A DNA stretch of 64,000 nucleotides from Acidobacteriaceae bacterium (GCA_036498835.1 DASYEV010000002.1:1763-65762), one strand, 5' to 3'; positions 6,900 through 57,517 are shown, counted from the first letter of the stretch. Numbers and translations are program-made. Notes: generated by a model from the letters alone, not told the origin.

Positions 6900-7029
6900 A
6901 GCAGGTCTCTCCGCTGCGCGTCACGATGAGGCTGTGACGCTTCGGTCGAGATGACAGGGTATGGGTGGTGCGAAGAAACAGCAGATCCCCTACGGGGATG
7001 ACAGAAAGAAAAGCAACAGCAAGAGCAAC
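6900..7029 (+). repeat. GTCATC/GATGACA-type palindromic repeat pair (GGTCTCTCCGCT...CGGTCGAGATGACA plus CAGCAGATCCCC.ACGGGGATGACA)
   Basis: The same two modules recur in both orientations at 45451-45751. Confidence 0.75.
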
Positions 7030-9861: not shown

Positions 9862-11145
9862 TCATGCGTAGATTCCGCGTTGCTTTGTCGTATACGCTAC
9901 GCGGTCGATGGCCAGCATGTAGGCAGCGATGCGGTTGTTGACGTCGTGATTGACGGCGTATTGGACGACATCGTTGAAGCTGTCGACCATGATGCGTTCC
10001 AGGCGCTGGTTCACTTCCGATTCCGTCCAGAAGTAGCCCATGCGGTCCTGGACCCATTCGAAGTAGCTGGTGGTGACGCCACCCGCGTTGGCGAGGATGT
10101 CCGGTACAACCACGATGCCTTTGTCCGCGAGGATGTCATCGGCGACCGTGGTGGTGGGACCGTTGGCTCCTTCAACGAGTACGCGGCACTGGAGCAGACC
10201 GGCGTTGCGGCTGGTAATGACGTTTTCCGTGGCGGCTGGAATCAGCACGTCGCAGTGACGGGTCAGGAGTTCGTCCTTGTCGGCAGTTTCCGCGCCCTTG
10301 AACCCGTGAATCGAGCCGGTGCGGGCTTTGTGTTCCATCAACTCACTGATGTCCAGCCCGCTGGCGTTATACAGGCCGCCATCGTATTCCGCGATACCAA
10401 TGATCTTGTAGCCCATTTCCCAAAGCAGTTTCGCGGAGAAGGAGCCTACATTGCCGAAACCCTGCACGATCACCGTCGCGCCTTGCGGCGACATGTTCAT
10501 GTGCTTCAGGGCCTCGTTGGTGACGATGCTGACGCCGCGGCCTGTGGCTTCACGGCGTCCACGCGAACCGCCGATGTTGACCGGCTTCCCGGTCACCACG
10601 CTCGTGCAGGTCTGGCCGACGTGCATGGAGTAGGTGTCCATGATCCAGGCCATCGTCTGCTCATTGGTGTTCATATCCGGAGCGGGAACGTCTTTTTCCG
10701 GCCCCAGGAATTCGATCAGGCTGGCTGTGTAACGGCGTGTGATGCGTTCGAGCTCGCCTTGGCTGAGGTTCTTGGGGTCGCAGATCACGCCGCCCTTGGC
10801 TCCGCCGAAAGGGATGTTGACCACGGCGCACTTCCAGGTCATCCAGCTTGCCAGTGCGCGTACTTCGTCGAGGGACACATCGGGCGAGTAGCGGATGCCG
10901 CCCTTGCCGGGACCGCGTGCGACCGAGTGCTGCACACGATAGCCGGTGAAGACTTCGATGGTGCCGTCGTCCATGTTGACCGGGATGTGAACAATGATTT
11001 CGCGGGAAGGGTAACGAAGGACTTTCCAGATGCCTGGATCAAGTTTGAGTTTTTCCGCGGCCAGATCGAAGCGCGCTGCCTGCGCTACCCAGGGATTGGT
11101 TTCCTGCTCCAGGGTAAGCGGAGCGGAAACTGTTGTTGCTGCCAT
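9862..11145 (-). CDS. gdhA: Glutamate dehydrogenase (Glu/Leu/Phe/Val dehydrogenase family)
   Basis: [61 protein letters not shown] and SYFEWVQ. Start at 11145 with an AAGGA RBS. Confidence 0.92.
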
Positions 11146-11543
11146 ACTGCCATCCTTTGGTGATGCATGAACTGGATGAGCGGCCAGCGCCGCGCCATCC
11201 GGTATCAATCGTTCTCCGGCCATCGCTGTTCCTCCGTGGGTGCGGCTCATCTTGTATTCTGACGCGCCCGCCGCTCAATTGGAGGAACAAAATTCGTACT
11301 TCTGGCCAGACCGGTCTGTGGCCAAACCCGAGGAGTATAGGCTCGCAGAAAAACCATAAGCAAGCCGTTAAGATACGGCTTTCGTTCAAGGGACATCCCC
11401 CGGCACGTGCATCGAAATAGGCCGGATTTTGGCGGGTTCGTAAACCTCTGGTCGAAGCATCGGATGCTGTAAGACAGGCTTAGAGCCATGGGGCACCTTG
11501 GGCGACCGTCGTTCTTCGGCGTTGCCCCGGTATCATGTGGGGG

Positions 11544-13058
11544 ATGCCTTTCTCGCGTACCCCAACCACACCCGCTTTCCGTGAGTTCCAAAGGCTTGCG
11601 CGAGCCCACTCGCTGGTCCCGGTGACTCGGACGGTCGCCGCCGACCTGGAAACGCCGGTTTCCGCCTTTCTGCGCGTAGCCGCGCGGGAGCCCGAAGCTT
11701 TCCTGCTGGAGTCGGTCGAGGGCGGCGAGCATGTGGGGCGATACACCTTTATCGGGATCCGACCTTATCGCAAGATGACGGCGAGCGAGGGCCAGATTAC
11801 AGTCACCGAAGGCCGCAAGCGGCGTAAGTATGCTGGCGATATCTTTTCGGAGTTGAAGGCGGTGCTTGAAGATGCCCGTCCCGCTAAACTGCCGGGACTG
11901 CCGCCATTCACAGCGGGCGCGGTGGGTTTTTTTAGTTACGACGTCGTCCGCCGTATTGAAAAGCTGCCGGAGCTGACGGCGGATGAACTTCACGTCCCCG
12001 ATGCCCACCTGATGTTTTTCGACGAGGTGCTGGCCTTCGACCATGTGAAAAAGGCCATCCACCTGATCGTGACTGCAGGCGCCCGCCAAAAAGCGGATAG
12101 GCGTGGGTATGAGGACGCGAACAAGCGGCTCGACCGTCTGGAACGCATGTTGAATGCGGCTCTTCCCAAGCAGGCGAAACGCGGAGCCAAAGGGCCGCTG
12201 AAGCTGAAAGCGCGCACGGCGAAAGCGCAGTTCATGCGCTCGGTGGCGAAGACCAAGGAATACATCGCCGCCGGCGACATTTTTCAGTGCGTCCTGTCCC
12301 AGCGTTTCGACTGCAAACCGGGTGTCGATCCGTTCGAGATCTATCGTTCCCTGCGCATCGTGAATCCCTCACCCTACATGTATTTCCTGCGTTTCGGGCT
12401 GGATGGGGGCAAGAAGAAGCAGCGCGAAGCTCACATCGTGGGGTCGTCGCCTGAATTGTTGGTGCGTGTCCACGATGACGTGGTGGAGTACCGGCCAATC
12501 GCCGGAACGCGCCCCCGCGGTTCGAGCGAGGCGCAGGATCGGGACTTCGAAGAAAGTCTTCGTGCCGATGCGAAGGAGGTCGCCGAGCACGTGATGCTGG
12601 TGGACCTCGGCCGCAATGACGTGGGACGTGTCAGCGAGTTCGGCACCGTTAAGGTGAAGGATCTGATGTTCATCGAGCGTTATTCCCACGTCATGCATCT
12701 GGTGAGCGCGATTGAAGGCAGGCTGCGCAAGGGCTTGGCGCCGATCGATGCGTTCCGCGCCTGTTTTCCCGCGGGAACGCTATCTGGCGCGCCCAAGATT
12801 CGCGCCATGGAAATTATCGAAGAGCTCGAGCCGGCGCGGCGCGGCGTCTATGGTGGCGCGATCTTCTATGCCGACTTCAACGGCAACCTGGACTCCTGCA
12901 TCGCCATCCGCACTCTGTTCATGGATGGCGAGAATGGTTACATCCAGGCAGGCGCAGGTGTGGTCGCCGACTCCGTGCCGGAAAAAGAACACGAAGAGTG
13001 CGTGAACAAATCGAAGGCCGTGGTACGAGCGATCGAACGCGCCCGGCAGTCCGCATAA
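11544..13058 (+). CDS. trpE: Anthranilate synthase component I
   Basis: DLETPVSAF, FLLESVEGGE..GRYTFIG, NPSPYM, GSSPELL, PIAGTRPRG, EHVMLVDLGRND, FPAGTLSGAPKIRAMEII and IAIRT. Confidence 0.9.
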   Translation: MPFSRTPTTPAFREFQRLARAHSLVPVTRTVAADLETPVSAFLRVAAREPEAFLLESVEGGEHVGRYTFIGIRPYRKMTASEGQITVTEGRKRRKYAGDIFSELKAVLEDARPAKLPGLPPFTAGAVGFFSYDVVRRIEKLPELTADELHVPDAHLMFFDEVLAFDHVKKAIHLIVTAGARQKADRRGYEDANKRLDRLERMLNAALPKQAKRGAKGPLKLKARTAKAQFMRSVAKTKEYIAAGDIFQCVLSQRFDCKPGVDPFEIYRSLRIVNPSPYMYFLRFGLDGGKKKQREAHIVGSSPELLVRVHDDVVEYRPIAGTRPRGSSEAQDRDFEESLRADAKEVAEHVMLVDLGRNDVGRVSEFGTVKVKDLMFIERYSHVMHLVSAIEGRLRKGLAPIDAFRACFPAGTLSGAPKIRAMEIIEELEPARRGVYGGAIFYADFNGNLDSCIAIRTLFMDGENGYIQAGAGVVADSVPEKEHEECVNKSKAVVRAIERARQSA

Positions 13059-33239: not shown

Positions 33240-33307
33240 GCCCCAGGCCTTTCAAGGTGTCTGCCTCATAGTGAAAACGCCACGTGAGAGCGCCGCGCGA
33301 GGTCTTT

Positions 33308-33513
33308 GTTTTGCTTAAGGACACGGGTTCACCCGTGTCGTAGGTTGCGGGAAGATCGCGGCTTGAGCCGCTGAGGTACCCGTATCAAGCTTGAGAAGAC
33401 GCTGGAGTCGCAGTGAGGTGCTGTGGCCGCCTTGGAACGGTTTCCTCCGGGGCTGAAGCCCGCGTCGTTTTAAGTTTGAACGTCACGGGTGAACCCGTGA
33501 CCTTAAGCAAAAC
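33308..33513. repeat. ~205-bp REP composite with 19/20-bp terminal inverted repeats
   Basis: Left GTTTTGCTTAAGGACACGGG versus reverse complement of the right end GTTTTGCTTAAGGTCACGGG. Internal palindromes CACGGG....CCCGTG (twice), GCGGCTTGAGCCGC and GGGCTGAAGCCC. Confidence 0.75.
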
Positions 33514-33580
33514 GATCTGGTACCGCAAACACCTCCAAGCTTCCATCGGATAAAGTTCGTGACCTTGAAAGGGCTGTGGC

Positions 33581-33696
33581 TAGAGCAGTTCCGGTAATGG
33601 TGTAGACCGAAGAGATGGTGCTGAAGCCGTTTTCTCCCAATGAAAACGGCATTCTCCACCGTTCGGGAAGACCACAGTATTACCGGAACCGCTCTA
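33581..33696. mobile_element. 116-bp MITE, TAGAGC family (subtype A)
   Basis: TIRs TAGAGCAGTTCCGGTAAT / ATTACCGGAACCGCTCTA. Near-identical to 45777-45892. Confidence 0.85.
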
Positions 33697-33929
33697 AGCC
33701 CCCTCTCTTGCATCGTGAGAAGAAATTTTCGTCACAGCCCTGTGAACATGCGGGCTCGCGTGCTGTACAGTAGCTACATCACCTTGCAATCTGCGGGCTT
33801 TTCCTTACATCACCTCGCGCGATAAGCGTCTTCGTCTATCTGTTTCGCGAGTCAAAAGCTTTCTCTCACCGGCGCTCGCCGGTGTTTCGCGGCGTTGTCT
33901 CTCACAGAGAAGCAGCGCTTCACGATGTT

Positions 33930-34043
33930 CCCAGCGGTTTCGGTAAGGGAGTAGCCGGAACAAAGAGTGCTGAAGTCCTTTTCTTGCAAGGAAATGACCT
34001 TCTCCGCTCTTCGTAAGGCCACAGTATTACCGAATCCGCTCTA
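33930..34043. mobile_element. Degenerate ~114-bp MITE, TAGAGC family (subtype A)
   Basis: AGCGGTTTCGGTAA...GTGCTGAAG...CCACAGTATTACCGAATCCGCTCTA aligns to 33581-33696. Confidence 0.7.
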
Positions 34044-34064
34044 ACCATGGAGGGTTAAGCGAGC

Positions 34065-35771
34065 ATGGGTTTTACACGACGGGATTTCCTGATGAAGGTC
34101 GGAAACGCGGGCGGATACAGCGCGGCGTTTCTCGCAATGCAGGGCCTTGGGCTGGTGGAAAGCAAGGCCGCTGCGCAGCCGGTGATCGAGGCCGCCCCAG
34201 GATCGGGGAAGGGCACGAAGGTTGTGGTGCTGGGTGGCGGGATTGCGGGCCTGGTGGCGGCCTATGAGCTGCGCGCGCTGGGCTACGAAGTGACGGTGCT
34301 TGAGGCACGTTCGCGCCCCGGCGGGCGTAACTGGACGGTGCGCGGCGGCGACAAGGTGACGTTCACGGACGGCACAACGCAGCAATGTACGTGGCAGGAG
34401 GGCCACTACCAGAACTTCGGTCCGGCTCGCCTGCCATCTATCCATCCCAACATCCTGGGCTACTGCCGCAAGCTGGGTGTGGAGCTCCAAGTTGAAGTGA
34501 ACATGACCAACTCCGCACACCTGCAGAACGATAACGCCAACGACGGCAAGCCGGAAGTGATGCGGCGCGTGGTGAACGATGCTCGCGGTCATGTCAGCGA
34601 ATTGTTGATGAAGTGCATGAATACCGGCGCGCTGGATGCCGACTTCAGCGGCCAGGACCGGGACAAGATGCTGGCGTTCCTGCGTATGTATGGTCCCCTG
34701 GACAGCGCAGGCAAATACGTTGGCAGCGACCGGGCGGGCTACGTGAAGACGGCGGGGGCAGGCGATGAAACCGGCGTGTTGAATCAGCCGATCGACATGC
34801 ACACGCTGCTGGATGAAAATTTCTGGCAGGGCATGATGTTCGACCAGCAGTTCGATATGCAGGCGACCATGTTCCAGCCGGTCGGCGGTATGGACCGCAT
34901 CCCCTATGCGTTCGCGAAGTCACTGGGCTCCATCGTGAAGTTCGACGCGCCCGTGACCGAGATTCGCAAAACCGCGAAGGGCGTGAAGGTTTCCTACAAG
35001 GAAAAGGGCGCGGCCAAGATGATCGAAGCGGATTACTGCATGTGCGCCATGCCGCTGACGATCCTCAAGACGATTCCCAACGACTTCAGTGAGCCCTATC
35101 AAAAGGTCATCGCTGAATGCACCTATGCCAGCGCCTACAAGGTGGCCTGGGAGAGCCGCAGGTTCTGGGAGCAGGACTACAACATCTACGGCGGCCTGGA
35201 GTTCTGCAGCGTCGGTTGCAGCCCCATCTGGTTCCCGTCGGCAAGCCTGTTCGCCGACCGCGGCGTCGTGGTGAGCGGTTATACCGATGAAACCAACAGC
35301 CCCTTCGGCAAACTCTCGATACCGGAGAAGTTTGAGGAAAGCCGTAAGTCGATTGAGCGCCTGCATCCCGGTCACGGGAAGGAACTCGAGAAGCCGATGT
35401 ATGTGGGCTGGGGCAAGGTGCCGTACAACGAGGGCTCCTGGATTCGCAGCTATTCCCCCAATCAACCGCGACGCGGTGGTAACTCCGTGACCACCCAACC
35501 GGGCGCGGGCGGTGGGCAGGCTCCGGGCATGACGCAGGCACGCAGCACAGGTGGCGCACAACAGCCGGCCGCGGCTCGTACACAATCGAACCCGGGCTAT
35601 GACACGCTCACGCAACCGGATGGGCGCGTTATCTTTATCGGCGATCACGTGAGCCACATCGTGGCGTGGCAGGAAGGCGCGGCGGTCAGCGCGCTGCGCG
35701 GCGTCAAGCTACTCAGCGAACAGGTCAAGGCTGCACGTCTGGCCACTACCAGTGATAGCGTTTCAGCATAA
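34065..35771 (+). CDS. Tat-exported flavin amine/L-amino-acid oxidase (monoamine oxidase family)
   Basis: Twin-arginine TRRDFLMK, FAD motif VVVLGGGIAGLVAAYEL, EARSRPGGR, NFGPARLP, FQPVGGMD and IFIGDHVSHIVAWQEGA. Confidence 0.88.
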   Translation: MGFTRRDFLMKVGNAGGYSAAFLAMQGLGLVESKAAAQPVIEAAPGSGKGTKVVVLGGGIAGLVAAYELRALGYEVTVLEARSRPGGRNWTVRGGDKVTFTDGTTQQCTWQEGHYQNFGPARLPSIHPNILGYCRKLGVELQVEVNMTNSAHLQNDNANDGKPEVMRRVVNDARGHVSELLMKCMNTGALDADFSGQDRDKMLAFLRMYGPLDSAGKYVGSDRAGYVKTAGAGDETGVLNQPIDMHTLLDENFWQGMMFDQQFDMQATMFQPVGGMDRIPYAFAKSLGSIVKFDAPVTEIRKTAKGVKVSYKEKGAAKMIEADYCMCAMPLTILKTIPNDFSEPYQKVIAECTYASAYKVAWESRRFWEQDYNIYGGLEFCSVGCSPIWFPSASLFADRGVVVSGYTDETNSPFGKLSIPEKFEESRKSIERLHPGHGKELEKPMYVGWGKVPYNEGSWIRSYSPNQPRRGGNSVTTQPGAGGGQAPGMTQARSTGGAQQPAAARTQSNPGYDTLTQPDGRVIFIGDHVSHIVAWQEGAAVSALRGVKLLSEQVKAARLATTSDSVSA

Positions 35772-35820
35772 CCAGCAAACTCGTAACCAACAAGCAGCAG
35801 GAACGAACAAGGAGAATGCG

Positions 35821-36309
35821 ATGAAGATTTTTCGAGCAGTAGTTCTGGCGGGCGCGGTGTTGGGCGCTGCGTGTGCAGCGCAGGCGCAAACCGTAGTGAA
35901 GCATATCCAGACCGAGAAGGGTGCGATCGCCACGGGCGTGTGGGCGGGTGACACCTACTACCTGAGCGGACAGCTTGCCAGCCCGGTCACCCCGGCAGAC
36001 GCGGCCAAGGGAACTCCAGCCGACTACGGAGATACCAAGACGCAGGCTGCCAGTGTGTTTGCGAAAATTCAGAAGGCCCTGCAGGAGCAGGGGCTGGACA
36101 TGAAGGACGTGGTGAAGATGACCGTGTTCCTCGGGCCCGATCCCAAGACCGGCAAGCTCGACTTCGCCGGCATGCAATCTGAGTACGTCAAATATTTCGG
36201 CACCAAGGAGCAGCCCAACAAACCTGCACGCTCGGCTTTCCAGGTTGCAGCCTTGGCAGCTCCATGGGCATTGCTTGAAATTGAAGTGATCGCGGTGAAG
36301 GGCAAGTAA
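35821..36309 (+). CDS. Rid-family (YjgF/RidA) imine/enamine deaminase with a Sec signal peptide
   Basis: MKIFRAVVLAGAVLGAACAAQA-QTVV signal, YYLSGQ, DVVKMTVFL, PARS (catalytic Arg) and LEIEVIA. Confidence 0.88.
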   Translation: MKIFRAVVLAGAVLGAACAAQAQTVVKHIQTEKGAIATGVWAGDTYYLSGQLASPVTPADAAKGTPADYGDTKTQAASVFAKIQKALQEQGLDMKDVVKMTVFLGPDPKTGKLDFAGMQSEYVKYFGTKEQPNKPARSAFQVAALAAPWALLEIEVIAVKGK

Positions 36310-36380
36310 GACGATGGCGGCTCTGAGATCGTAATAGGGATGTAAGGTTCGTATAGATCGTAATTGCGACCACAAACCTA

Positions 36381-36567
36381 AGCGCCAAAGGCGCGCCGCT
36401 ATACCAGCCCAGGGCGAAGCCCTGGGTACCGAATCATTGTGAATTTGAGGGCTGAAGGCCCGATCTATAGTGACGCCACTATAGGTCGGGCCTTCAGCCC
36501 TCTATCTCTTAGGCCAACCTAACCCAGGCCTTCGGCCTGGGCTGGTATAGAACGCGCCTTCAGCGCT
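36381..36567. repeat. 187-bp nested-palindrome REPIN-like element, copy 1
   Basis: AGCGCCAAAGGCGCG-CTATACCAGCC-AGGGCGAAGCCC...GGGCTGAAGGCCCG...CGGGCCTTCAGCCC...GGCTGGTATAG-CGCGCCTTCAGCGCT. Recurs at 42452 and 57301. Confidence 0.9.
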
Positions 36568-36657
36568 ATCTGGTTCGACAGCAAGCCATATGAGACACAA
36601 CCGTTCTGTTCGGGGCGTCGTTGTGCGATGTTGAACATAGGATCCAAACGCGTTGAC

Positions 36658-36692
36658 AAAAAGGCTCCGGCGTTTGCCGGAGCCTTTCTTGT
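36658..36692. terminator. Bidirectional intrinsic terminator
   Basis: AAAAAGGCTCCGGC-GTTT-GCCGGAGCCTTTCTTG between convergent genes. Confidence 0.8.
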
Positions 36693-36703
36693 TTGTGTCC
36701 TGG

Positions 36704-37963
36704 TTACGCGAAGTGCGCGTAGGTAAGGGGATCCGCAAGATCATGCATCGGATCAGCACTATTCATCGCGACTGCGGGCGTGTCCATCACGGTCTTGAAC
36801 GCCGCTTTGAACTTCGCCATTTCCGTGGGTGTGCCCACGGAAACACGCACAGCCTGGGGCCATATGGGCCATGTGCGGCCGATATAGACCTTCTGCGCCT
36901 GCATCGCTTTGATCACGGACTTGCCATCGCGTCCGGTGTCGATCATGAAGCAGTTCGATTGCGACTCGCCGATCACCTTGTAGTTATTCGTCTTCAGCCA
37001 TGCCAGCGTGTCGCGGCGTGTGTCGCCGATGATCTTCTTGCGGGTTGGAATCAGGTCGGCATCTTCCAGCGAAACGCGCGCTGCCGCGGAACCGGTGATC
37101 GGCATGGCATTCTGTCCGAACGGCTGCAGCTTCGCGAGGAGGTCGGGGCGGGCTACTGCGAAGCCGCAGCGAATGCCGGCCATGCCGTAGATCTTGGAGA
37201 ACGTGCGCAGGACGATGAGGTCCTTGTCGGCTGCCACAAAGTCCAGCACATCCGGCGAGTCGGAGAGGTGAATGTAGGCTTCATCGACCAACAGGATCGA
37301 ACCCTTGGGTTTGTTCTCCAGTGCCCAGGCGATGTCCTCCTTGGTGGTGAGTGTGCCCGTGGGGTTGTTGGGGTTGCAGATGTACAGCACGCCGGCATTG
37401 GGGTCGGCAGCCACCATGGCCTTCACATCATGGGCATGGTTTGAGGTGAGAGGAACCTTGGAGATTTTCGCTTTGGCGACAGTCGCGGCGCGCATGCCTG
37501 CTTCATACGAAGGGTCCGCTGTCACAAAGCCGCGTGTCGGCGAAGTGAATGCCAGCACGCTGTAGTGCAGAGGCTCCGATGAGCCTGCATACACCGCGAT
37601 GTAGGACTCTTTGAGGTTGTGCTGCTCTGCGAAAGTTTTGGTGAGCTTGCCGGTTTCGCCGTAAATATCGTAGCGGCCTCCCATGGGTGCGATCGAAGCG
37701 ATGACTTCGCACGCGGCCTTACAAGGCCCCAGCGGGTTTTCATTGGCGTTGATCAGCACGGCGTCGGCGGGCATCGCCTGACGTGTACGGCGTGGTGTTG
37801 CGGCCTGCGCACCGGGGTCCATGGTGGCGCCGGGAATCTTGCCTTGTTGTGCGGCATAGGCGAAGTGGGCTTCAGTCAGGATGGGCGCTGCTGCGGCCAG
37901 CGCGGCATAGCGGAGAAATGTGCGGCGAGATTTAGCGTTGCCGGATGCTTCGAGCGGGTACAT
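36704..37963 (-). CDS. Tat-exported PLP-dependent aminotransferase (class I/II, HisC-like)
   Basis: SRRTFLRY twin-arginine signal, INANENPLGP, CNPNNPTG, LVDEAY and RTFSKIYGMAGIRCG (PLP Lys). Confidence 0.88.
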   Translation of the reverse strand: MYPLEASGNAKSRRTFLRYAALAAAAPILTEAHFAYAAQQGKIPGATMDPGAQAATPRRTRQAMPADAVLINANENPLGPCKAACEVIASIAPMGGRYDIYGETGKLTKTFAEQHNLKESYIAVYAGSSEPLHYSVLAFTSPTRGFVTADPSYEAGMRAATVAKAKISKVPLTSNHAHDVKAMVAADPNAGVLYICNPNNPTGTLTTKEDIAWALENKPKGSILLVDEAYIHLSDSPDVLDFVAADKDLIVLRTFSKIYGMAGIRCGFAVARPDLLAKLQPFGQNAMPITGSAAARVSLEDADLIPTRKKIIGDTRRDTLAWLKTNNYKVIGESQSNCFMIDTGRDGKSVIKAMQAQKVYIGRTWPIWPQAVRVSVGTPTEMAKFKAAFKTVMDTPAVAMNSADPMHDLADPLTYAHFA

Positions 37964-38124
37964 GAGATTCTCCTTCGTCGTTCGTGAATGGGGAACGCAA
38001 AAGCAACTATGTCAGTGATGCCTGTCAGGGACCAGCGAAACGCGGGAATGGAAACTTGGCGCTGCTTGTTGGAGTGAATGTAAATCAAAACTCGCTCAGC
38101 GCAATGCATTATTTTATTTTTCTG

Positions 38125-38152
38125 TTGACACGAAGTTCGCATGCGTCATACT
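38125..38152 (+). promoter_or_regulatory. Candidate sigma70 promoter TTGACA-N16-CATACT with an AT-rich upstream element
   Basis: Perfect -35, partial -10, preceded by ATTATTTTATTTTT. About 570 bp upstream of the TonB receptor start. Confidence 0.4.
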
Positions 38153-38726
38153 CTCGGCTCTATTACCAAAAGTAGCCTTTTCGGGGTTCGCGAACTCCGC
38201 ATATAACAGTGCGGCTCCACGAATCACACAGTCCAATCGGCCTGTACGTTGAGTCATTTCAAACGAACGCGACTCCGTGTACAAAGCGATCTTGCCCTTG
38301 CAGCACCCGCAGCAGAGCAGAACTGTAAATCCGTAAGAGCATCTCTCATGATGCAGTGCCCTCGCTAAGCAATCGAGAACGTTGTTTTCTTTGGCGGAAA
38401 ACGACTTCAACATCTTCAGCCTCGGTAAGCCTTCACGAGAAATGTCTAGCTCATCAAGGCGAGCTTGCGCTCTTCGAGTGCAAAGCATGCAATCGCCAGG
38501 CAGCACGCACTCGTAGTGCCTTTGTCCAGCTTTCTTTGTTTCGCAACTGAGTGAGAAAACAGCAGCCGGCGTACCGGTGCCGCTGTAGTTTGCCCATCCG
38601 GCGAACACGCCTCTGCCGTTTCTCGATGTGCCGGCCATCGCTACTGTCTCGCGCGACGACGCGGACTGTGCGAGCGATGGGGCCGCATACCTGTATCTAT
38701 TTGCAGTTTTTCGAGGAGGACACACC

Positions 38727-41700
38727 ATGAAGACAATGCAACGACGCATCACCCGATCTCTGGCCGCGGTCGCGATGTTTGTGTTCGCACTATGTGCTGC
38801 AACCGCGCAGTCCAACTACGGAGCTATTCGAGGGATCGTGACTGATCCTCAGGGCGCTGCACTCGGCGACGCTTCTGTGACTCTCAAGTCGGGCGCGACG
38901 AAAATTGCTCGCGACACCCATTCCAACAACGCGGGTGAGTATGTCTTCAACGCCGTCGATCCAGGTACTTATACGCTTATCGTCACGCGCAGTGGTTTCA
39001 AGGCGTTGGAGCGAACCAACGTCATCATCGATTCAGGCAATACCAATGTCACCGATCTCAAACTCGCGGTAGGTGCTACTTCGGAGAGCATTGAAGTCAC
39101 GGCGATCGAACCCATCGTCGACAACGGCACTTCGTTTAGCGGCCAGCTCATCGATTCGCAGAAGCTGCTGAATCTTCCCAATCCAGGCCGCAATCCATTT
39201 CTCTTTTCCAAGCTCGACAACAGCGTGACACCCACCGGCGATCCCCGTTTCGTCCGCTTTCAGGATCAGAGCGGCTCGTCGACGATTTCCATTGCCGGCG
39301 CGCCCATGAGCTCGAACAACTATCTCGTCGATGGGGTGCCCATCACGGATTCAAGCAACCGGGCAGTGATCATTCCCAGCCTGGAAGCGGTCGAAGAGGT
39401 CAAGGTTCAGGCCAACACCTATGACGCCGAAATCGGCCGTACCAGTGGCGGTAATTTCAACACCACACTGCGATCAGGCTCAAGCACATTGCATGGCGTC
39501 CTGCAGGGTGAAACCCGTCAGACAAACTGGGGCGCAAATACGTTCTTCAACAATCGCAGCTCGGGCACCATCAACGGTGTGGTCTACAGCCAGCTTCCTC
39601 GCGGCGCAGCGGAGTTTTATTCCTACGTCGGAAGTTTGTCGGGTCCGTTGCCTTTGCCTGGTTTTCTGGGTGGCAAGAATAAGACTTTCTTCGCGATTAC
39701 GGAAGAGGGGTACCGGCAGCGCTCGCCGTATGTGAACAGCACGCAATTCGTTGTGCCGACAGATCTGCAGCGCGCGGGAAACTTTTCTGAGATTGGGACA
39801 GTGACCTCGGCAGGCATATGCGTCACGGGAAACTGCATCAAGAACATCGCGGCCAGCACGACCAGCGTGCCCGTGTACTACCCCGGCAATATCGTTACGG
39901 GGATCAACCCGATCGGACAGGCGCTGGTGAATTCCTTTCCGCATGCGAACACCGCGGTTACAGCGCTTGGCAAAGCCAACTTCAACGGCTATGACACGCT
40001 TGGCGATCGTGCCGATGAATTCAATGGCAAGCTGACCCATGAATTCTTCAATCGCTGGCTCGCGGACTTTTACTACTTGCACTATGGCTCGAAGGAACCT
40101 GGCGGCAATCCGCTGACGAACGTAGCTGGTTCTTCAGGTTCCTATCTTCTTTATCGCAAGGTCGATGCCATCGGTATTCAGAACACCATTACGGTCACAC
40201 CGACAACGGTGTTGACCGTCGGCTTCGGCTTCAACCGTTTCCCCAACGATACCCAGGACATCAGCAAAGGCTTCGATCAGACGACTCTCGGTTTTCCAGG
40301 TACATATGTCGCCGCTCAATCCAAGAAGGCCTTTCCGCGCTTGACGTTTGACAGCACGTTGACCAATGAAGGCACATCGAACTCCGGTCCCGTGGTCTTC
40401 TTCTCCCGCAATTTTGTTGTGGGGCTCGCCAGGAACATCGGCCGGCATAGCCTGAAGGTCGGCTATAACTATCGTGCGATCAGCGAGACCTTCACAAGCT
40501 TGAGCGACACGTCAGGCACATTCAACTTCAACTCGCTTTCAGGCGCGGCTGCCGCGGATATGCTGCAAGGCATCCCTACCAGCGGCGCGCTGATTATTCC
40601 TTCGCAGCTTGCCTACACCACCGGGTATCAAGCCGTCTATGTGCAGGATGACTGGCGTGCAACTTCGCGGCTGACACTGAACCTGGGTTTCCGCTATGAG
40701 TTCGAACCCGGGATTCACGAGCGCAACAACCATATCGCGGTTGGCTTTGACCGCACTCTTTCCTACAACGCTCTCAACTCCGGTATCACCGCGAAAGGTG
40801 GTGTAGAGTTCGCCGGCCAAGGCGGCTATGGCGCCAATACCGGGAACATGGCCGGCAAATACAATCCGCGCGCGGGCTTTGCCTTTGCAGTGGATAAGAA
40901 CACTGTCGTGAAGGGCGGCTATGGCGTGTTCTATGCGCCCCTGTACTACTCCAACAACAATGGCTACGCTCCCGGTTACATCCTTACGAATTCCATCCCC
41001 ACGCAGTCGATCGGAAATGCGAGCACTACGCTGAGCAATCCGTATCCAACGCTGAAGACCCAGCCGACCGGGAACAGCGCCGGTCCTGGTACGAACATCG
41101 GCACGACGCTTTCACTGATTGACCAGTACCGGCGGTCGCCTTTGTTTGATTCCTACTCCTTTGAGGTTGAGCGTCAGTTTCCCGCGGGTATCGCGTTCAA
41201 GCTCGGCTACGTGGGCGGACATGGCCGCAACCTGCCCGACAGCTTGAACGTCAACCAGCTTGGGGACAACTACTATCCGCTGGGCACGACGGCGCTCGGC
41301 GCCGCTACTCCTTTCGCTTTCTCGGGTCTGGGGCAGTGGAAGGCTGGAACCCAGCCGCTGTATCAGACGGTATTTCCATTCCCTCAGTATCAGAGCGTCA
41401 CACTTGCCACGAGCCTTGGGCGTTCCGACTACAACGCACTCAATCTCAAGGTGCAGAAGCGCTTCAGCAAGGGCATGACGATTCTGGCGGCGTACACGTG
41501 GTCCTCCAACTGGGACAACATCTGGGGCGCCTACGGCTCGTCGAACACGCTCAACAGCGGCAACAACGGACCGCAGGACATCTACAACCTGGCTCCGGAG
41601 TATGCCCGCGCATCCAACGATATTCCCAACCGCTTCACGGTGGCTGGCACGTATGAGCTGCCGTTCGGCCGCGGCAAGCATTTCCTCAACGGCGGTAACC

Positions 41701-42233
41701 GCTGGTTGGATCTCGCCGTGGGTGGATGGAAGTTCCACGATATCTCCGCGGTCCAGAATGGCGGTCCGCTGGCCATCACACAGACCAGCAACATCACGTC
41801 GTACGGCAACAGCACGCAGCGTCCGACCATCATTCCCGGAGTCAACCCATGCAAGTCGGGCCGGCCTGAGGATCGCATTGCGCAATACTTCAACCCACTG
41901 GCGTTTGCGGCAACGCCTCCTCCGGCCGCGGGTGGTGCGCTACCGTATGGCAACCAGCCTCGAGCCAGCAGTTGCTATGGACCGGGCTACATCAACTCTG
42001 ACCTTTCTCTCAACAAGGATTTCCGGGTAAGCGAGCGCGTTCACATGGAGTTCCGCGCGGAAGCGTTGAACGCCTTCAACACGCCGCAGTTTGCGACTCC
42101 CGGCCTCTCCATTGGCAGCTACAGCGCCAGTTCCACAACCAACGCCACCGCCTATAACTCAGGCGCCGGCCAGATCACCGGCACACTGGGCTTCCCCAGG
42201 CTGATCCAACTTGGAGGACGGTTAACCTTCTGA
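38727..42233 (+). CDS. TonB-dependent receptor, Oar-like, with a carboxypeptidase-regulatory-like N-domain
   Basis: Signal peptide, GAIRGIVTDPQGA, LPNPGRN, NNYLVDGV, YDAEIGRTSGG, YVQDDWR..SRLTLNLGFRYE and C-terminal PRLIQLGGRLTF. Start ATG 38727 after GGAGG. Confidence 0.92.
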   Translation: MKTMQRRITRSLAAVAMFVFALCAATAQSNYGAIRGIVTDPQGAALGDASVTLKSGATKIARDTHSNNAGEYVFNAVDPGTYTLIVTRSGFKALERTNVIIDSGNTNVTDLKLAVGATSESIEVTAIEPIVDNGTSFSGQLIDSQKLLNLPNPGRNPFLFSKLDNSVTPTGDPRFVRFQDQSGSSTISIAGAPMSSNNYLVDGVPITDSSNRAVIIPSLEAVEEVKVQANTYDAEIGRTSGGNFNTTLRSGSSTLHGVLQGETRQTNWGANTFFNNRSSGTINGVVYSQLPRGAAEFYSYVGSLSGPLPLPGFLGGKNKTFFAITEEGYRQRSPYVNSTQFVVPTDLQRAGNFSEIGTVTSAGICVTGNCIKNIAASTTSVPVYYPGNIVTGINPIGQALVNSFPHANTAVTALGKANFNGYDTLGDRADEFNGKLTHEFFNRWLADFYYLHYGSKEPGGNPLTNVAGSSGSYLLYRKVDAIGIQNTITVTPTTVLTVGFGFNRFPNDTQDISKGFDQTTLGFPGTYVAAQSKKAFPRLTFDSTLTNEGTSNSGPVVFFSRNFVVGLARNIGRHSLKVGYNYRAISETFTSLSDTSGTFNFNSLSGAAAADMLQGIPTSGALIIPSQLAYTTGYQAVYVQDDWRATSRLTLNLGFRYEFEPGIHERNNHIAVGFDRTLSYNALNSGITAKGGVEFAGQGGYGANTGNMAGKYNPRAGFAFAVDKNTVVKGGYGVFYAPLYYSNNNGYAPGYILTNSIPTQSIGNASTTLSNPYPTLKTQPTGNSAGPGTNIGTTLSLIDQYRRSPLFDSYSFEVERQFPAGIAFKLGYVGGHGRNLPDSLNVNQLGDNYYPLGTTALGAATPFAFSGLGQWKAGTQPLYQTVFPFPQYQSVTLATSLGRSDYNALNLKVQKRFSKGMTILAAYTWSSNWDNIWGAYGSSNTLNSGNNGPQDIYNLAPEYARASNDIPNRFTVAGTYELPFGRGKHFLNGGNRWLDLAVGGWKFHDISAVQNGGPLAITQTSNITSYGNSTQRPTIIPGVNPCKSGRPEDRIAQYFNPLAFAATPPPAAGGALPYGNQPRASSCYGPGYINSDLSLNKDFRVSERVHMEFRAEALNAFNTPQFATPGLSIGSYSASSTTNATAYNSGAGQITGTLGFPRLIQLGGRLTF

Positions 42234-42451: not shown

Positions 42452-42639
42452 AGCGCCAACGGCGCGCCCTATACCAGCCTGGGGCGAAGCCCCAGGTAAT
42501 GGTCCAGAACTGAACGGAGGGCTGAAGGCCCGATCTATAGTGGCGTCACTATAGATCGGGCTTTCAGCCCTCCACGTTCACAAGGCGCGGTCGACATGGG
42601 GCTTCGCCCCAGGTTGGTATAGAACGCGCCTTCAGCGCT
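42452..42639. repeat. 188-bp nested-palindrome REPIN-like element, copy 2
   Basis: Same modules as 36381-36567. Confidence 0.9.
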
Positions 42640-42779
42640 GTTTTGTTCTATCTGTCTCCTGACGATGAGATGCGGCAACATCGCCGGACTAACATTTGCT
42701 CTAGCCTTGAGTACTCCAAGCAGCTCTCACGCACACACATAAAGCCGGGCTTCTTCTCTTGTATGCAAGTAAGCGTGCC

Positions 42780-44066
42780 TTACTGCCCCTGGGTGACCGA
42801 AGATACCGCGACAGCACGGTGGCTGGTATCGGGATTGCGGGCGAGTTCGCGGCGCACATGCGCCGTGACTCGTGTCGCCGCATATCCGGCGCCTGCGGCG
42901 AAGCGTTGCAGCGGACCGAAGTTGGAAGCGCTCGCGGGGCCTACGAAATACAGGCCGCGCACGCTGGATTCGAAATAGCGATTGAGGCTGGCGGCGCCGT
43001 TCTTTTCGCGGCGCAGCAACCGGCGGATATCGCTTGAAAGAAAGCCCAGGCGTTTGAGGTCGACGCGATAGCCCGTCCCCGCGATGATGTGCGAGGTGAT
43101 GTGTTCGCGTGATTCGCCCTTCGGTCCGCTCAGCGTGAGCTTGACGGCGGGTGACCGGTTGCTTCCTGTGATCGCTTCGGCGGATTGAATCGACCAGCCC
43201 ATGAGCTGGGGGAATTTGCCTTCCACGCGGCCCTGCAATGCCGTTCCTCCCGCAGGTCCGAGATGTTTGAAGACGATGATGCGGCGGACGGCTGCGGGAA
43301 GAATGCGGTACAGGTCAGGTATCGTGCTGGCCAGCCATGAGCGCAGACCCACGCCCAGCGGAGAGAGAGGATGACGAAGCTTCTGGTACAGCGACCGGTC
43401 ATCCGACGTGGGTTCGTGGATGTGAATTTTGCGGCTGCGCGCGATCAGTGTCACATCTGAGCCGAGTTCTTTCAGGATCACCGCAGCGTTCAGCGAACTG
43501 GCTCCACGCCCCAGAACGGTAACATCCTGGCCGGCAAACTCATCGAAGGTGCGGTGATCGGAGGTGTGGGTAACAAGGCCCTCCGGCAGGCGGGCTAGAA
43601 AATCCGGGATGTGGTTGAAGTGGCCGATGCCCATCGCGAGAATCACATGCTCGGCGTGGAAGGTTTCCCCGGTTTCAATCTCGATGCGGAACCCATCGTC
43701 TTCGCGTTCCAGGCCTGTGATATTGCGTTCTTCCAGGTTGGGTACGAAGCGGCGCGCGAACTCTTCGCCGTAGGCGATGAAGTCTTCAATGGGAACCGGG
43801 ATCAGCGTGTCGTGATAGGCGAGACCATTGAGGTCGCTGAACTCTTTGAGCGTGAAACTCTGTGAGCCGGCGGAAAGGCTGGAGGCAAAGCCATCGGACT
43901 TCAGCTTCATGCCGACCGGCATCTGCGTCTTCCAGGTGCGCATGGGATGACCGAAGATGCGGAAGGGAATTCCTGCTTCTCGAAAGTGCGCCGCCAGCGA
44001 AAGCCCGTAGGGACCTGCTCCAACGATGACGGCATGGATACGGTTTGTGTCGCTGCGATTCGCCAT
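42780..44066 (-). CDS. FAD/NAD(P)H-dependent oxidoreductase (flavoprotein monooxygenase/TrxB-like fold)
   Basis: VIVGAGPYGLS (FAD), VLGRGASS (NADPH), IAGTGY (FATGY-like) and GLYFVG. No CxxC pair. Start at ATG 44066. Confidence 0.82.
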   Translation of the reverse strand: MANRSDTNRIHAVIVGAGPYGLSLAAHFREAGIPFRIFGHPMRTWKTQMPVGMKLKSDGFASSLSAGSQSFTLKEFSDLNGLAYHDTLIPVPIEDFIAYGEEFARRFVPNLEERNITGLEREDDGFRIEIETGETFHAEHVILAMGIGHFNHIPDFLARLPEGLVTHTSDHRTFDEFAGQDVTVLGRGASSLNAAVILKELGSDVTLIARSRKIHIHEPTSDDRSLYQKLRHPLSPLGVGLRSWLASTIPDLYRILPAAVRRIIVFKHLGPAGGTALQGRVEGKFPQLMGWSIQSAEAITGSNRSPAVKLTLSGPKGESREHITSHIIAGTGYRVDLKRLGFLSSDIRRLLRREKNGAASLNRYFESSVRGLYFVGPASASNFGPLQRFAAGAGYAATRVTAHVRRELARNPDTSHRAVAVSSVTQGQ

Positions 44067-44173
44067 GCACACTTTCCGGGCAAAGCCCTCCCTCAGTGTA
44101 GAGCGTTGAAGGATTTCGCGGATATGCACCAAGTGGGTCACATCGTTGTCGCCTGAGAGAACGGTAAACTTGC

Positions 44174-45415
44174 GTGGTGAGCAGACCTGCGAGCCAGAGA
44201 GATTGTCCCGATGCGCCGCGGGTATTGATTGTTTCCACCGAGTTGTGGCTTTCCACTGCGCGGCAGTCCATGGCGCTCCGCTCCCTGGGTTGCGAGGTGA
44301 TGCTGCTGGCGCCGCCGAGTCATCCGGCGCTGTTGACTGGCGCCATCACCGCTTTCCACAAACACCAGCCACTACGCCCATTCCCAGCGTTGATGAAGGC
44401 GATGCGGGAGTTTCGTCCCGATGCACTCATCCCCGCGGACGAGCGCACCGTGATTCACCTGCAGGAACTGTGGATACGCACGGAAGCCGGCACGGATCAG
44501 GACCGTGCGTGGATCCTCGAATTGCTGGACCGCTCCTTCGGCTCACGTGAGGCTCTGTTTGCCGTTCGCTCCCGGATGTTTGTGTTGGACATCGCTCGCG
44601 AAGAAGGTGTCGCGATCCCGGATACGGTGCGGGTCGAAAGCGAAGCCGATCTTGATGGCGCGATCCGTGAGCTTGGTTTACCGCTGGTATTGAAAGCGGA
44701 CATGACCTCCGGCGGTGACGGCGTGGCGATTGCCGCTGACTCTGGTGAAGCTCAGCGGAGCTGGCGCAAGCTGCATCATCCGCCCAACCTGGCGCGGGTA
44801 TTGCGGCGGGGAATCCTCTTTAAAAACTGGGCCCACCTGCGCTCCTGGGCCAGGCGCGAACGGCTGGGGATGACGGCGCAGCGTTTTGTGCAGGGCGGAG
44901 AGCGGACCAGCATGGCCGTCTGCTATCGCGGTGAAGTGATTGCGTCAGCCTGCCTGGAGGTCGCGAAGACATGGCAGGTGCGTGGGCCTTCGAGCGTGCT
45001 CCGCGTGGTGAAGGATGAGGCCATGGAGAACGCCATGCGGCGTGTTGCCAGGCGGCTTAACCTGTCAGGGTTTTGCGGCTTCGACTTCATGGTGCCGCAG
45101 GACAGCGGTCAGTCGCTTTTAATCGAAATGAACCCACGGCCCACGCAGACGGCTCACCTGGCGCTGGGTGCCGGGCACGATCTCGTTGCTGCGTATGTGC
45201 GCGCCGTTCTAGGCAAGACGGATACGCCGGATCGTTCAGCCGTCAGTGACGGAGAGCTGATCGCGCTGTTCCCCCAGGAGTTGGTGCGCGATGCGAACAG
45301 TGAACTGATCCAAGCGGCATACCATGACGTGCCCTGGGAGTCGCCGGAACTGATGAAGCGTGCGCTGAATCCGCTGCCCGCTGTGATTACGGAGGATCCC
45401 CGCTGGCGCGGTTGA
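44174..45415 (+). CDS. ATP-grasp domain protein (putative amino-acid/carboxylate-amine ligase)
   Basis: LPLVLKADMTSGGDGV, QRFVQG, GFCGFDFM and LIEMNPRP. Confidence 0.85.
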   Translation: MVSRPASQRDCPDAPRVLIVSTELWLSTARQSMALRSLGCEVMLLAPPSHPALLTGAITAFHKHQPLRPFPALMKAMREFRPDALIPADERTVIHLQELWIRTEAGTDQDRAWILELLDRSFGSREALFAVRSRMFVLDIAREEGVAIPDTVRVESEADLDGAIRELGLPLVLKADMTSGGDGVAIAADSGEAQRSWRKLHHPPNLARVLRRGILFKNWAHLRSWARRERLGMTAQRFVQGGERTSMAVCYRGEVIASACLEVAKTWQVRGPSSVLRVVKDEAMENAMRRVARRLNLSGFCGFDFMVPQDSGQSLLIEMNPRPTQTAHLALGAGHDLVAAYVRAVLGKTDTPDRSAVSDGELIALFPQELVRDANSELIQAAYHDVPWESPELMKRALNPLPAVITEDPRWRG

Positions 45416-45450: not shown

Positions 45451-45751
45451 GTTGTCGTTGTCTTTCTGGTTGTCATCCCCGCAGGGGATCTGCTGTTTTT
45501 CCTTGCTATCCATACTCTGTCATCTCGACCGGAGCGAAGCGTAGCGGAGAAACCTGCTTTTCGTCTGTGGCTTCACAACTCCAGCTGGACGGCACGAACA
45601 GCCTTAACAGCAGATCCCCTTCGGGGATGACAACCAGAAAAGCAACGGCTCCCACAGTTCCGTACACGAAGTGGCGTTCCCGACACATGGGCAGGGGCAG
45701 AAGCGGGTCTCTCCGCTACGGCGCAAAAGCGCCTCCGGTCGAGATGACAAG
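45451..45751. repeat. Cluster of GTCATC/GATGACA-type palindromic repeats (four modules)
   Basis: GTTGTCATCCCCGCAGGGGATCTGCTGTT, GTCATCTCGACCGGAGCG..CGGAGAAACC, CAGCAGATCCCCTTCGGGGATGACAAC and GGTCTCTCCGCT..CGGTCGAGATGACA. Same family as 6900-7029. Confidence 0.8.
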
Positions 45752-45776
45752 CGATGGGTGATACGAAGCGGAAGGT

Positions 45777-45892
45777 TAGAGCAGTTCCGGTAATGGTGTA
45801 GACCGAAAAGAGGGTGCTGAAGCCGTTTTCTCCCAATGAAAACGGCATTCTCCACCGTTCGGGAAGACCACAGTATTACCGGAACTGCTCTA
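45777..45892. mobile_element. 116-bp MITE, TAGAGC family (subtype A); its right end overlaps the stop codon of the priming glycosyltransferase
   Basis: Perfect TIRs TAGAGCAGTTCCGGTAAT / ATTACCGGAACTGCTCTA. CTA at 45890-45892 is the TAG stop of the minus-strand gene. Confidence 0.88.
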
Positions 45893-50704: not shown

Positions 50705-50820
50705 CACGGCAAATCCCCTGAAGGTGTACAGGAAAGCGAAATCGCACAAGCCGTTTTCTCTCAAGGGAAACGGCCTCCACCACCGCCTATCGACTCCCCA
50801 GCATCAGGGAATTTGCTCCA
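50705..50820. mobile_element. Degenerate 116-bp MITE, TAGAGC family (subtype B)
   Basis: Right end CATCAGGGAATTTGCTCCA and core AAGCCGTTTTCTC...GAAACGGC match the reverse complement of 57133-57247. Confidence 0.7.
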
Positions 50821-57247: not shown

Positions 57248-57300
57248 GTGCCCAGCCCCCAACGTGGGTGAGCCATTCTTGCTGACCGGACACAGATCTG

Positions 57301-57494
57301 AGCGCCAAAGGCGCGACGCTATACCAGCCTGGGGCGAAGCCCCAGGTAGGCTTCTACCCGAGGCACTAAGGGCTGAAGGCCCGCCCTATGCATTTGTGGT
57401 TGGATATAGGTCGGGCTTTCAGCCCTCTGTTCTCATCATGATCAACTACCCAGGCCTTCGGCCTGGGCTGGTATAGCGTCGCGCCTTCGGCGCT
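57301..57494. repeat. 194-bp nested-palindrome REPIN-like element, copy 3
   Basis: Same modules as 36381-36567, with an additional flanking IR ATCTG/CAGAT. Confidence 0.9.
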
Positions 57495-57517
57495 CAGATT
57501 TATGGCTGATCTACTGT

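Follow-up and report, generated by a model that had tools for sequence, protein, structure and literature searches.

The window analyzed here is a 64,000-nucleotide stretch of DNA from an Acidobacteriaceae bacterium (GCA_036498835.1 DASYEV010000002.1:1763-65762), and between positions 34,065 and 42,233 it carries four neighboring genes for a predicted L-amino-acid oxidase (OX), a Rid protein (RID), an aminotransferase (AT) and a TonB-dependent receptor (TBDR). OX would bind flavin adenine dinucleotide (FAD) and AT pyridoxal 5'-phosphate (PLP); both have predicted signals for export by twin-arginine translocation (Tat), while RID has one for the general secretory (Sec) pathway. An earlier note on this DNA described four adjacent genes which all carry export signals, with the receptor gene divergent from that of the aminotransferase. 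That description holds, as all four open reading frames (ORFs) are present, their family assignments stand and the two genes lie on opposite strands (Table 1).

Table 1. Features of the locus and its surroundings, with positions counted from the first letter of the window
Feature	Position	Strand	Description or basis
OX	34065-35771	+	568 aa; predicted Tat-exported FAD L-amino-acid oxidase
RID	35821-36309	+	162 aa; predicted Sec-exported Rid3-type imine deaminase
AT	36704-37963	-	419 aa; predicted Tat-exported PLP aminotransferase, PRK09105/PtaA-like
TBDR	38727-42233	+	1168 aa; TonB-dependent outer-membrane receptor, divergent from AT
Shine-Dalgarno AAGGAG of RID	35810-35815	+	5-nt spacer to start codon; read from sequence
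Hairpin, 12-bp, GC-rich, A and T runs on either side	36660-36687		terminator scan and sequence reading; just 3' of AT
Composite palindromic repeat, ~200 nt	36381-36576 (RID/AT spacer), 42452-42648 (after TBDR), 57278-57505		repeat searches

OX matches the Pfam family Amino_oxidase (PF01593, E=6.6e-35, residues 60-545) and possesses the dinucleotide-binding motif GGGIAGL at residues 57-63. Its best solved relative is the L-amino-acid oxidase (LAAO) of Rhodococcus opacus (roLAAO; 2jae), to which it is 38% identical over 459 aligned residues (E=6.5e-88). The pocket residues of roLAAO are R84, D227, Y371, W426, A466 and W467 (PMC10900486). All six are conserved in OX, where they align to R122, D264, Y406, W459, A534 and W535, and across 16 homologues of OX they are invariant save for A534, which is either Ala or Gly. 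Because these published pocket residues are kept, OX is assigned to the alpha-amino-acid oxidases of the roLAAO type rather than to the generic amine oxidases. The two proteins share the FAD fold, the pocket residues and an N-terminal signal peptide. OX differs from the R. opacus enzyme, whose host is Gram-positive, in having F263 in place of Y226 and in carrying an extra, variable, low-complexity insert of approximately 45 residues. This insert (35451-35585, about residues 463-507) is rich in Gly, Gln, Pro and Ala and probably forms a disordered loop at the protein surface; orthologues differ greatly in the length of the insert, and neither the homologue P0038 nor the OX paralogue at the metagenome locus L081 has it. 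The best 120 matches listed in protein searches with OX and RID are at least 69% and at least 81% identical, respectively, and close homologues of both proteins number in the thousands and are very common in soil metagenomes.

RID belongs to the Pfam family Ribonuc_L-PSP (E=1.6e-20). Its best solved relatives are PSPTO3006 (9bka, E=6.6e-31) and PFL1385 (9bkc, E=3.2e-24), with chains of the RidA/YabJ type matching at E=2.8e-11 or worse, and its score on the RidA model TIGR00004 is below the cut-off for that model (63.4 vs 106.25). The catalytic Arg is found in the sequence KPARS and the Glu in LEIEV, and both align to the same residues of PSPTO3006 and PFL1385. RID is accordingly assigned to the Rid3-type Arg-containing imine deaminases, and the classes that the earlier note had proposed for OX and RID are thus both upheld. 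PSPTO_3006 and PFL_1385 are Rid3 proteins which deaminate imines made by LAAO and DauA in vitro (PMC5619798). They resemble RID in keeping the Arg and Glu residues but differ from it in having been studied as purified or cytoplasmically expressed proteins. Niehaus and coworkers reported that Rid3 genes cluster with genes for FAD amine oxidases and stated that the in vivo substrates of Rid3 were unknown (PMC4433059). Signal peptides and the periplasm are not mentioned in the text of either paper (PMC5619798, PMC4433059).

AT is a member of the Pfam family Aminotran_1_2 (E=4e-37). It scores 544 bits on the PRK09105 model NF006580, above the cut-off of 444, and 419.6 bits (E=7.8e-126) on NF051461, the equivalog model for the Pseudomonas transaminase PtaA. 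Since the latter score falls under the curated cut-off of 500 bits, identification of AT as PtaA itself was rejected, and AT is classed as a member of the subfamily of Tat-exported PRK09105/PtaA-like transaminases. The predicted PLP-binding lysine, K257, lies within TFSKIYGMAG and is invariant in the alignment of the family, as are the other PLP-site residues N200, D227 and Y230.

TBDR is identified by its sequence as a TonB-dependent receptor consisting of a signal, a CarboxypepD_reg domain, a plug and a barrel. The barrel matches OMP_b-brl_4 (592 bits, E=2.4e-177), the N-terminal CarboxypepD_reg domain is detected at E=5.1e-18, and the Plug domain scores 22.9 bits, slightly below the cut-off of 23.9. 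The start codon ATG 38727 is favored over GTG 38628. TBDR has no detectable solved sequence relative from which a substrate could be inferred. The genes on either side of TBDR are AT and a flavin-monooxygenase-like gene, and there is no SusD/RagB-like partner beside it. The description of the locus as similar to a polysaccharide-utilization locus is therefore an analogy only, given that the locus has neither a SusD-type partner nor a regulator.

The predicted signal peptide of OX spans approximately residues 1-37 (nt 34065-34175) and begins with MGF-TRRDFLMK, the twin-arginine motif occupying T4-K11, before a cleavage site at which AAA is followed by Q. That of AT is of similar extent (about residues 1-37, nt 37963-37853) and contains SRRTFLRY, in which S12-R-R-T-F-L-R18 forms the motif, followed by AYA with cleavage before A. 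RID has a Sec-type signal peptide of 22 residues (nt 35821-35886), MKIFRAVVLAGAVLGAACAAQA, which is followed by QT so that the site is AQA before QT, and the Sec-type N-terminus of TBDR is MKTMQRRITRSLAAVAMFVFALCAATA, followed by QS (AATA before QS). An N-terminus with Lys or Arg, a hydrophobic stretch and an AxA site before Q occurs in 59/59 RID sequences (58 orthologues plus that of the window); residues of the signal vary freely among these sequences, while the start of the mature protein, VVKHIQTEK, is conserved. All 30 full-length AT sequences, that of the window included, keep the pattern S/T-RR-x-F-L/M-R, and a strict twin-arginine motif is present in at least 42 of 69 AT homologues from metagenome loci. 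The twin Arg of OX is nearly invariant among its 16 homologues. Alignment of mature roLAAO to OX begins only at residue 49 of OX, and the signal peptide of roLAAO was removed for soluble expression of that enzyme (PMC10900486).

Export is supported because orthologues keep these signal features even though the residues around them change. Tat signals on the enzymes that bind FAD or PLP together with a Sec signal on the cofactor-less Rid protein is the pattern expected of genuine export. The observation of export signals is therefore confirmed, and the motifs on which it was based (TRRDFLMK in OX, SRRTFLRY in AT, the Sec peptide of RID and the Arg of PARS and Glu of EIE in its mature part) are all present. 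OX, RID and AT are very probably exported; their localization, which we infer from these predicted signals, would be periplasmic.

Export of Rid proteins also extends beyond the locus. A search of 1.84 billion representatives clustered at 50% identity gave 385 relatives of RID at E<=1e-10; the best 150 of these include 85 representatives that have a single domain and look full-length, and the N-termini of these 85 were surveyed. A simple rule based on charge, hydrophobicity and an AxA site marks 75 of the 85 as signal-peptide-like, and the representatives include several with lipoboxes and 4 with RR motifs. Export looks to be general in the Rid3-like clade, and the premise that Rid proteins are normally cytoplasmic fails for it. 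Some relatives of RID (among them P0245, P0249, P0250, P0252 and P0253) have three tandem Rid domains in a chain of 400-490 aa, an arrangement equivalent to a covalent trimer, and several further relatives are predicted lipoproteins.

The ORF listing for RID begins at GTG 35752, but ATG 35821 is the likelier start given the AAGGAG sequence upstream of it. OX and RID are likely to be co-transcribed, as the gap between them is 49 nt and the terminator scan placed no terminator-like site within it. The hairpin downstream of AT is probably a bidirectional terminator that closes the convergent OX-RID and AT transcripts. The promoter scan was uninformative (4 sites vs 4.0 expected). In Rfam searches of the 826 nt that precede OX and of the spacer between AT and TBDR, no riboswitch or leader was detected, the only matches being Acido-Lenti-1 repeat motifs.

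Gene order around OX was compared by scanning GTDB, at one genome for each species, with an alignment of OX and keeping the best 80 of 228 relatives. The OX sequences at these loci, most of which are from Acidobacteriaceae, are 67-82% identical, the nearest being from Granulicella or from metagenome-assembled genomes (MAGs) of Acidobacteriaceae (<=82%). The counts include the window and are restricted to loci whose flanks are long enough. RID is the next gene downstream of OX, on the same strand, in 56 of 75 loci, and the window locus is one of these pairs of exported LAAO and Rid, with signals on both genes. AT is found within a few kb of OX in 28/66 loci, and its presence follows that of RID: AT is near OX in 27 of the 47 loci that have RID vs 1 of the 19 that do not (Fisher p=7e-5, uncorrected for phylogeny). 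An orthologous TBDR is present in 8/62 loci. All four genes occur together in the window and in 6 of the 80 loci (L011, L012, L013, L014, L016, L056), with TBDR in the same position. OX and RID are thus a conserved pair, but the four genes together are not a tightly conserved unit.

Genomic context tracks the clades of OX: one group of clades has S53 peptidases, a single clade has OX alone, and the other clades have OX-RID and AT. The association of AT with OX spans several OX clades and three arrangements: AT is convergent in most loci, it is divergent and upstream of OX in L046 and L063, and in other loci a further gene is inserted. The inserted gene encodes an exported M19 dipeptidase (PF01244, E=3.9e-105), which lies between RID and AT in six loci (L008, L014, L021, L038, L057, L070) and is co-directional with AT in these as well as in L081. 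In 17 loci a sedolisin-type S53 peptidase of ~960 aa is encoded directly upstream of OX-RID on the same strand; 6 of the 17 have a second, convergent S53 gene downstream, and none of the 17 has AT. In L020, from Bryocella elongata, genes for a Tat-exported OX, a TBDR, a Tat-exported oxidase of the D-amino-acid oxidase (DAO) family and a Tat-exported AT follow one another consecutively, with no RID. The Tat DAO-family oxidase was found in the L020 locus only. The window contains no homologue of the M19, S53 and methyltransferase genes that are neighbors in relatives.

Some of these neighbors have features of their own. The S53 peptidase (L031 157-3036 and its orthologues in 16 other loci) has a bacterial Ig-like domain and, at its C-terminus, a match to the 'lipo-invert putative anchoring' model NF058595 (37.5 bits vs a cut-off of 37), which suggests that it is a protease anchored at the cell surface. 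The FAD-dependent DAO-family oxidase of B. elongata DSM 22489 (L020 14124-15374), encoded between the TBDR and the Tat aminotransferase and downstream of the Tat LAAO, may be a lipoprotein (SRRQFL ... LSGC) and could oxidize D-amino acids or glycine in the periplasm. A close relative, L002, has between RID and AT a gene (10382-11932) for a signal-bearing fusion of a glucose/sorbosone dehydrogenase with cytochrome c.

A second scan, in which an alignment of AT was run against metagenome contigs, yielded 80 loci whose AT homologues are 31-76% identical. TBDR is the sole recurrent neighbor of these diverse homologues. Of the 70 flanks that are long enough, 8 have it immediately beside AT, whether divergent, convergent or co-directional, although TBDR-like ORFs make up only 9 of 628 in the AT-centered loci overall (p ~8e-6 for adjacency). 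OX-RID is near just one of the 80, the closest homologue (L081), where the order is TBDR, AT, M19, two small ORFs, RID and OX, and where OX is 55% identical to that of the window. The locus is composed of two conserved pairs, OX-RID and AT-TBDR, that are kept together in one Acidobacteriaceae lineage, often with a dipeptidase.

From the results above, which cover the protein families, the conservation of catalytic residues and export signals, and the statistics of gene order, we infer likely substrates, a physiological role and a possible coupling of AT to OX. The reading that we favor, with moderate confidence, is that in this soil bacterium the locus encodes a periplasmic module for oxidative deamination of L-amino acids which releases nitrogen from amino acids or peptides. 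OX would fold with FAD in the cytoplasm, leave by the Tat pathway, and convert L-amino acids and O2 to 2-imino acids and H2O2 in the periplasm. RID would leave unfolded by the Sec pathway and hydrolyze the imino acids to 2-oxo acids and ammonium, a reaction expected to speed turnover and to prevent side-reactions of imines within the envelope. Uptake of the ammonium, and possibly of the oxo acids, would follow, and the ammonium would be assimilated; the cell could in this way gain nitrogen from amino acids and peptides without one transporter for each compound. OX and RID would be the conserved core of the module, probably expressed as a single transcript. AT, exported by the Tat pathway with PLP bound, would be an accessory that adjoins TBDR in the lineage of the window, and TBDR would probably import peptide-sized or scarce amino compounds. 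AT may widen the range of donors by transferring amino groups of poorly oxidized compounds to oxo acids made by OX and RID, and OX would regenerate the oxo acid that AT uses as acceptor. A bolder version, in which AT with OX and RID constitutes a self-contained periplasmic transdeamination cycle that acts on TBDR-imported peptides or amines and releases ammonium, is put forward tentatively and is rather unlikely.

Peptidase and dipeptidase neighbors in relatives, together with TBDR, suggest that the feedstock is derived from proteins or peptides. The earlier note had left the choice between uptake and periplasmic processing of the nitrogen of amino acids or peptides and the tailoring of a siderophore. 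The former is preferred because related loci carry exported peptidases (S53 and M19), the Tat DAO-family oxidase and TonB receptors.

Several points nevertheless weigh against a periplasmic deamination module of which all four genes are part. Export signals were judged by motif and by conservation among orthologues rather than by a trained predictor, and the gene-order statistics are drawn from related genomes which are not phylogenetically independent. AT is on the opposite strand, and hence it is not co-transcribed with OX-RID. In the window the locus has beside it no gene for a peptidase, a regulator or a transporter of ammonium or oxo acids, and no detoxification partner for periplasmic H2O2 is visible at the locus. 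A run search with the window sequence gave matches only in soil-metagenome DNA runs and none in RNA. One clade of OX, comprising 17 loci at ~70-73% identity, has neither RID nor AT and instead adjoins genes for a pyrroloquinoline quinone (PQQ)-dehydrogenase and/or a fucosidase. To these is added the rarity of OX-RID near AT homologues in metagenomes.

The main alternative is that the locus consists of two unrelated neighboring modules, with OX-RID carrying out deamination and AT-TBDR importing and transaminating some other amine-bearing molecule, and that there is no metabolic coupling between them. In the AT-centered scan it is TBDR and not OX-RID that recurs beside AT; within the window AT is convergent to OX-RID with a terminator-like hairpin between them; and the S53-type OX-RID loci lack AT entirely. 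Against this, the adjacency of AT to OX tracks the presence of RID and survives rearrangements (L046, L063, L020, L081), down to the 55% identity of the OX in L081, and the operons in which AT is followed by an M19 dipeptidase point to amino acids or peptides as substrates, which is the class of compound on which OX itself would act. Two uncoupled modules are possible but on balance unlikely.

Alternatively, the products rather than the nitrogen could be what matters, either a 2-oxo acid that serves as a signal (e.g., indole-3-pyruvate as a source of auxin) or H2O2 directed against competitors in habitats such as soil, moss or lichen. The only genetically studied bacterial cluster of a Tat-LAAO with RidA, that of Gluconacetobacter diazotrophicus, is required for the conversion of Trp to indole-3-pyruvate (IPyA) and then to indole-3-acetic acid (IAA) (PMC5053998). 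LAO1 of Chlamydomonas likewise yields IAA, and several of the related loci are from lichen MAGs. The pocket of OX, though, agrees with that of roLAAO, an enzyme of broad spectrum, rather than with that of an enzyme specific for Trp, neighbors that encode peptidases, dipeptidases and transaminases are a better fit for bulk processing of amino acids, and no decarboxylase or aldehyde dehydrogenase that could serve in making IAA is encoded nearby. A role centered on these products seems improbable.

Still less probable is that AT tailors a secreted natural product or siderophore in the periplasm, as PtaA does, and that TBDR takes up the finished compound. The substantial score of AT on the PtaA model is consistent with such a role, as is the import of siderophores being the classic role of TonB-dependent receptors, and PtaA-like enzymes are present in species that do not make pyoverdine, for which other periplasmic biosyntheses have been proposed (PMC6206403). 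AT falls short of the PtaA equivalog cut-off, however; genes for nonribosomal peptide synthetases, polyketide synthases or siderophore biosynthesis or export are absent from the flanks in the window and do not recur in the related loci, where the recurring neighbors are peptidases. Finally, it is very improbable that the N-terminal extensions fail to work as export signals and that the enzymes are cytoplasmic: the signals rest on motif and conservation rather than on a predictor or experiment, the Pfam TAT_signal match of AT is weak (17.1 bits, below the cut-off of 22.7) and OX has none, but the canonical S/T-RR-x-F-L motifs and AxA sites persist across orthologues as neighboring residues drift, and mature roLAAO, freed of its signal peptide for soluble expression (PMC10900486), starts beyond the extension.

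The genes that flank the locus are unrelated to it. Upstream are purM, purC, purD, purN, purE and purK, and downstream are the flavin-monooxygenase-like gene, an ATP-grasp gene and a gene for an exopolysaccharide priming transferase. The flavin-monooxygenase-like gene, which has weak similarity to Lys/Orn N-oxygenases, and the ATP-grasp gene are divergent from each other (42780-45415) and precede the exopolysaccharide priming glycosyltransferase gene. These two genes were considered as members of the locus and rejected, as their products have no signal peptides and they are not conserved beside OX. The interval between purK and OX (33240-34064) is an unusually long non-coding stretch that is built partly of dispersed repeats; it has no Rfam match and no convincing ORF, and no promoter or regulatory site for OX was identified in it.

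Two families of repeats are dispersed through intergenic regions of the window. The composite palindromic repeat has a 56-nt perfect-like palindrome between two Acido-Lenti-1 motifs, the second of which is inverted; the two motifs score 41.7 and 41.0 bits on Rfam RF01687 (gathering score 37). Two copies of the repeat bracket AT-TBDR, and their interpretation as the ends of a mobile unit was rejected, since the window has a third copy at another site and the element has the look of a palindrome scattered among intergenic regions. It looks REP/MITE-like (similar to repetitive extragenic palindromes or miniature inverted-repeat transposable elements) and is probably a dispersed intergenic element rather than part of the enzyme system. 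The composite repeat may bear on the true nature of the Acido-Lenti-1 family, which is described as a small RNA ('sRNA'). The second family has a 119-nt unit, with copies at 33578-33696 and 45774-45892 that are 97% identical, a weaker copy at 33933-34044 and partial copies near 6938-7028 and 50748-50785. It is accompanied by nearby inverted repeats of 34-42 nt and by hairpin pairs at 33308-33513 and 45456-45647, and its members are situated both in the non-coding stretch that precedes OX and in front of the exopolysaccharide genes.

Acidobacteriaceae are among the commonest bacteria of soil. If the favored reading of the locus as a periplasmic deamination module is true, oxidative deamination outside the cytoplasm would be widespread among bacteria as a way of turning the organic nitrogen of protein, peptides and amino acids into ammonium, and it would release H2O2 and oxo acids as by-products. 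The Rid3 subfamily would gain a physiological setting, and periplasmic PLP transaminases that have no part in pyoverdine biosynthesis would gain a partner system that can be tested. The transdeamination cycle, if true, would have two further consequences. It would explain how Tat-exported transaminases recycle pyridoxamine to PLP without a pool of oxo acids, a question raised for PtaA, whose PLP regeneration in the periplasm was described as unresolved (PMC6206403), and it would redefine the largely exported Rid3-like clade as enzymes of the cell envelope.

Parallels for parts of the locus exist in several known systems. The SusC/RagA-type loci of Bacteroidota have a TonB-dependent transporter with a carboxypeptidase-regulatory-like domain beside periplasmic processing enzymes. 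The locus in the window resembles them in combining such a transporter with processing enzymes and differs in having no SusD/RagB-like lipoprotein or dedicated regulator. PtaA of Pseudomonas is similar to AT in being a Tat-exported, PLP-loaded transaminase with a HisC-type fold, and it too is found in species that do not produce pyoverdine (PMC6206403). AT, in contrast, scores under the equivalog cut-off, comes from an organism that is no pyoverdine producer, and has as neighbors an LAAO, a Rid protein and a TBDR (with a dipeptidase in relatives) instead of siderophore genes.

The closest parallels are with systems in which an exported LAAO is paired with a Rid protein. In Chlamydomonas reinhardtii, periplasmic LAO1 and LAO2/RIDA scavenge ammonium from external amino acids (PMC10805672). 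As in the window, a gene for an extracytoplasmic flavin LAAO is beside a gene of the Rid family, and the role proposed is under nitrogen limitation; the host, however, is a eukaryotic alga with other targeting and no division between Tat and Sec, and the pair has no transaminase, TonB receptor or peptidase neighbors. The Tat-lao-cccA-ridA cluster of G. diazotrophicus is similar to the window locus in that its LAAO, a relative of the R. opacus enzyme, has a Tat signal and is paired with a Rid gene, and co-occurrence of lao and ridA was noted in 19 further genomes along with a proposed periplasmic location (PMC5053998). It differs from the window locus in that lao and ridA are separated by a gene for cytochrome c, a feature which the cytochrome c domain of the L002 fusion recalls, and in its auxin phenotype, and it has no adjacent transaminase or TBDR; export of RidA was not addressed in that study. 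The earlier note knew of no characterized system with this four-part composition, and the searched literature likewise contains no description of a locus that combines an LAAO, a Rid protein, a PtaA-like transaminase and a TBDR, or of acidobacterial LAAO systems. The novelty implied by that statement applies to the four-part composition and not to the core of exported LAAO and Rid, which is already known from Chlamydomonas and G. diazotrophicus (PMC10805672, PMC5053998; see also PMC4433059). What is new in comparison with these systems is the conserved association of that core with a PtaA-like transaminase, a TonB-dependent receptor and peptidases, together with the near-universal predicted export of the Rid3-like clade.

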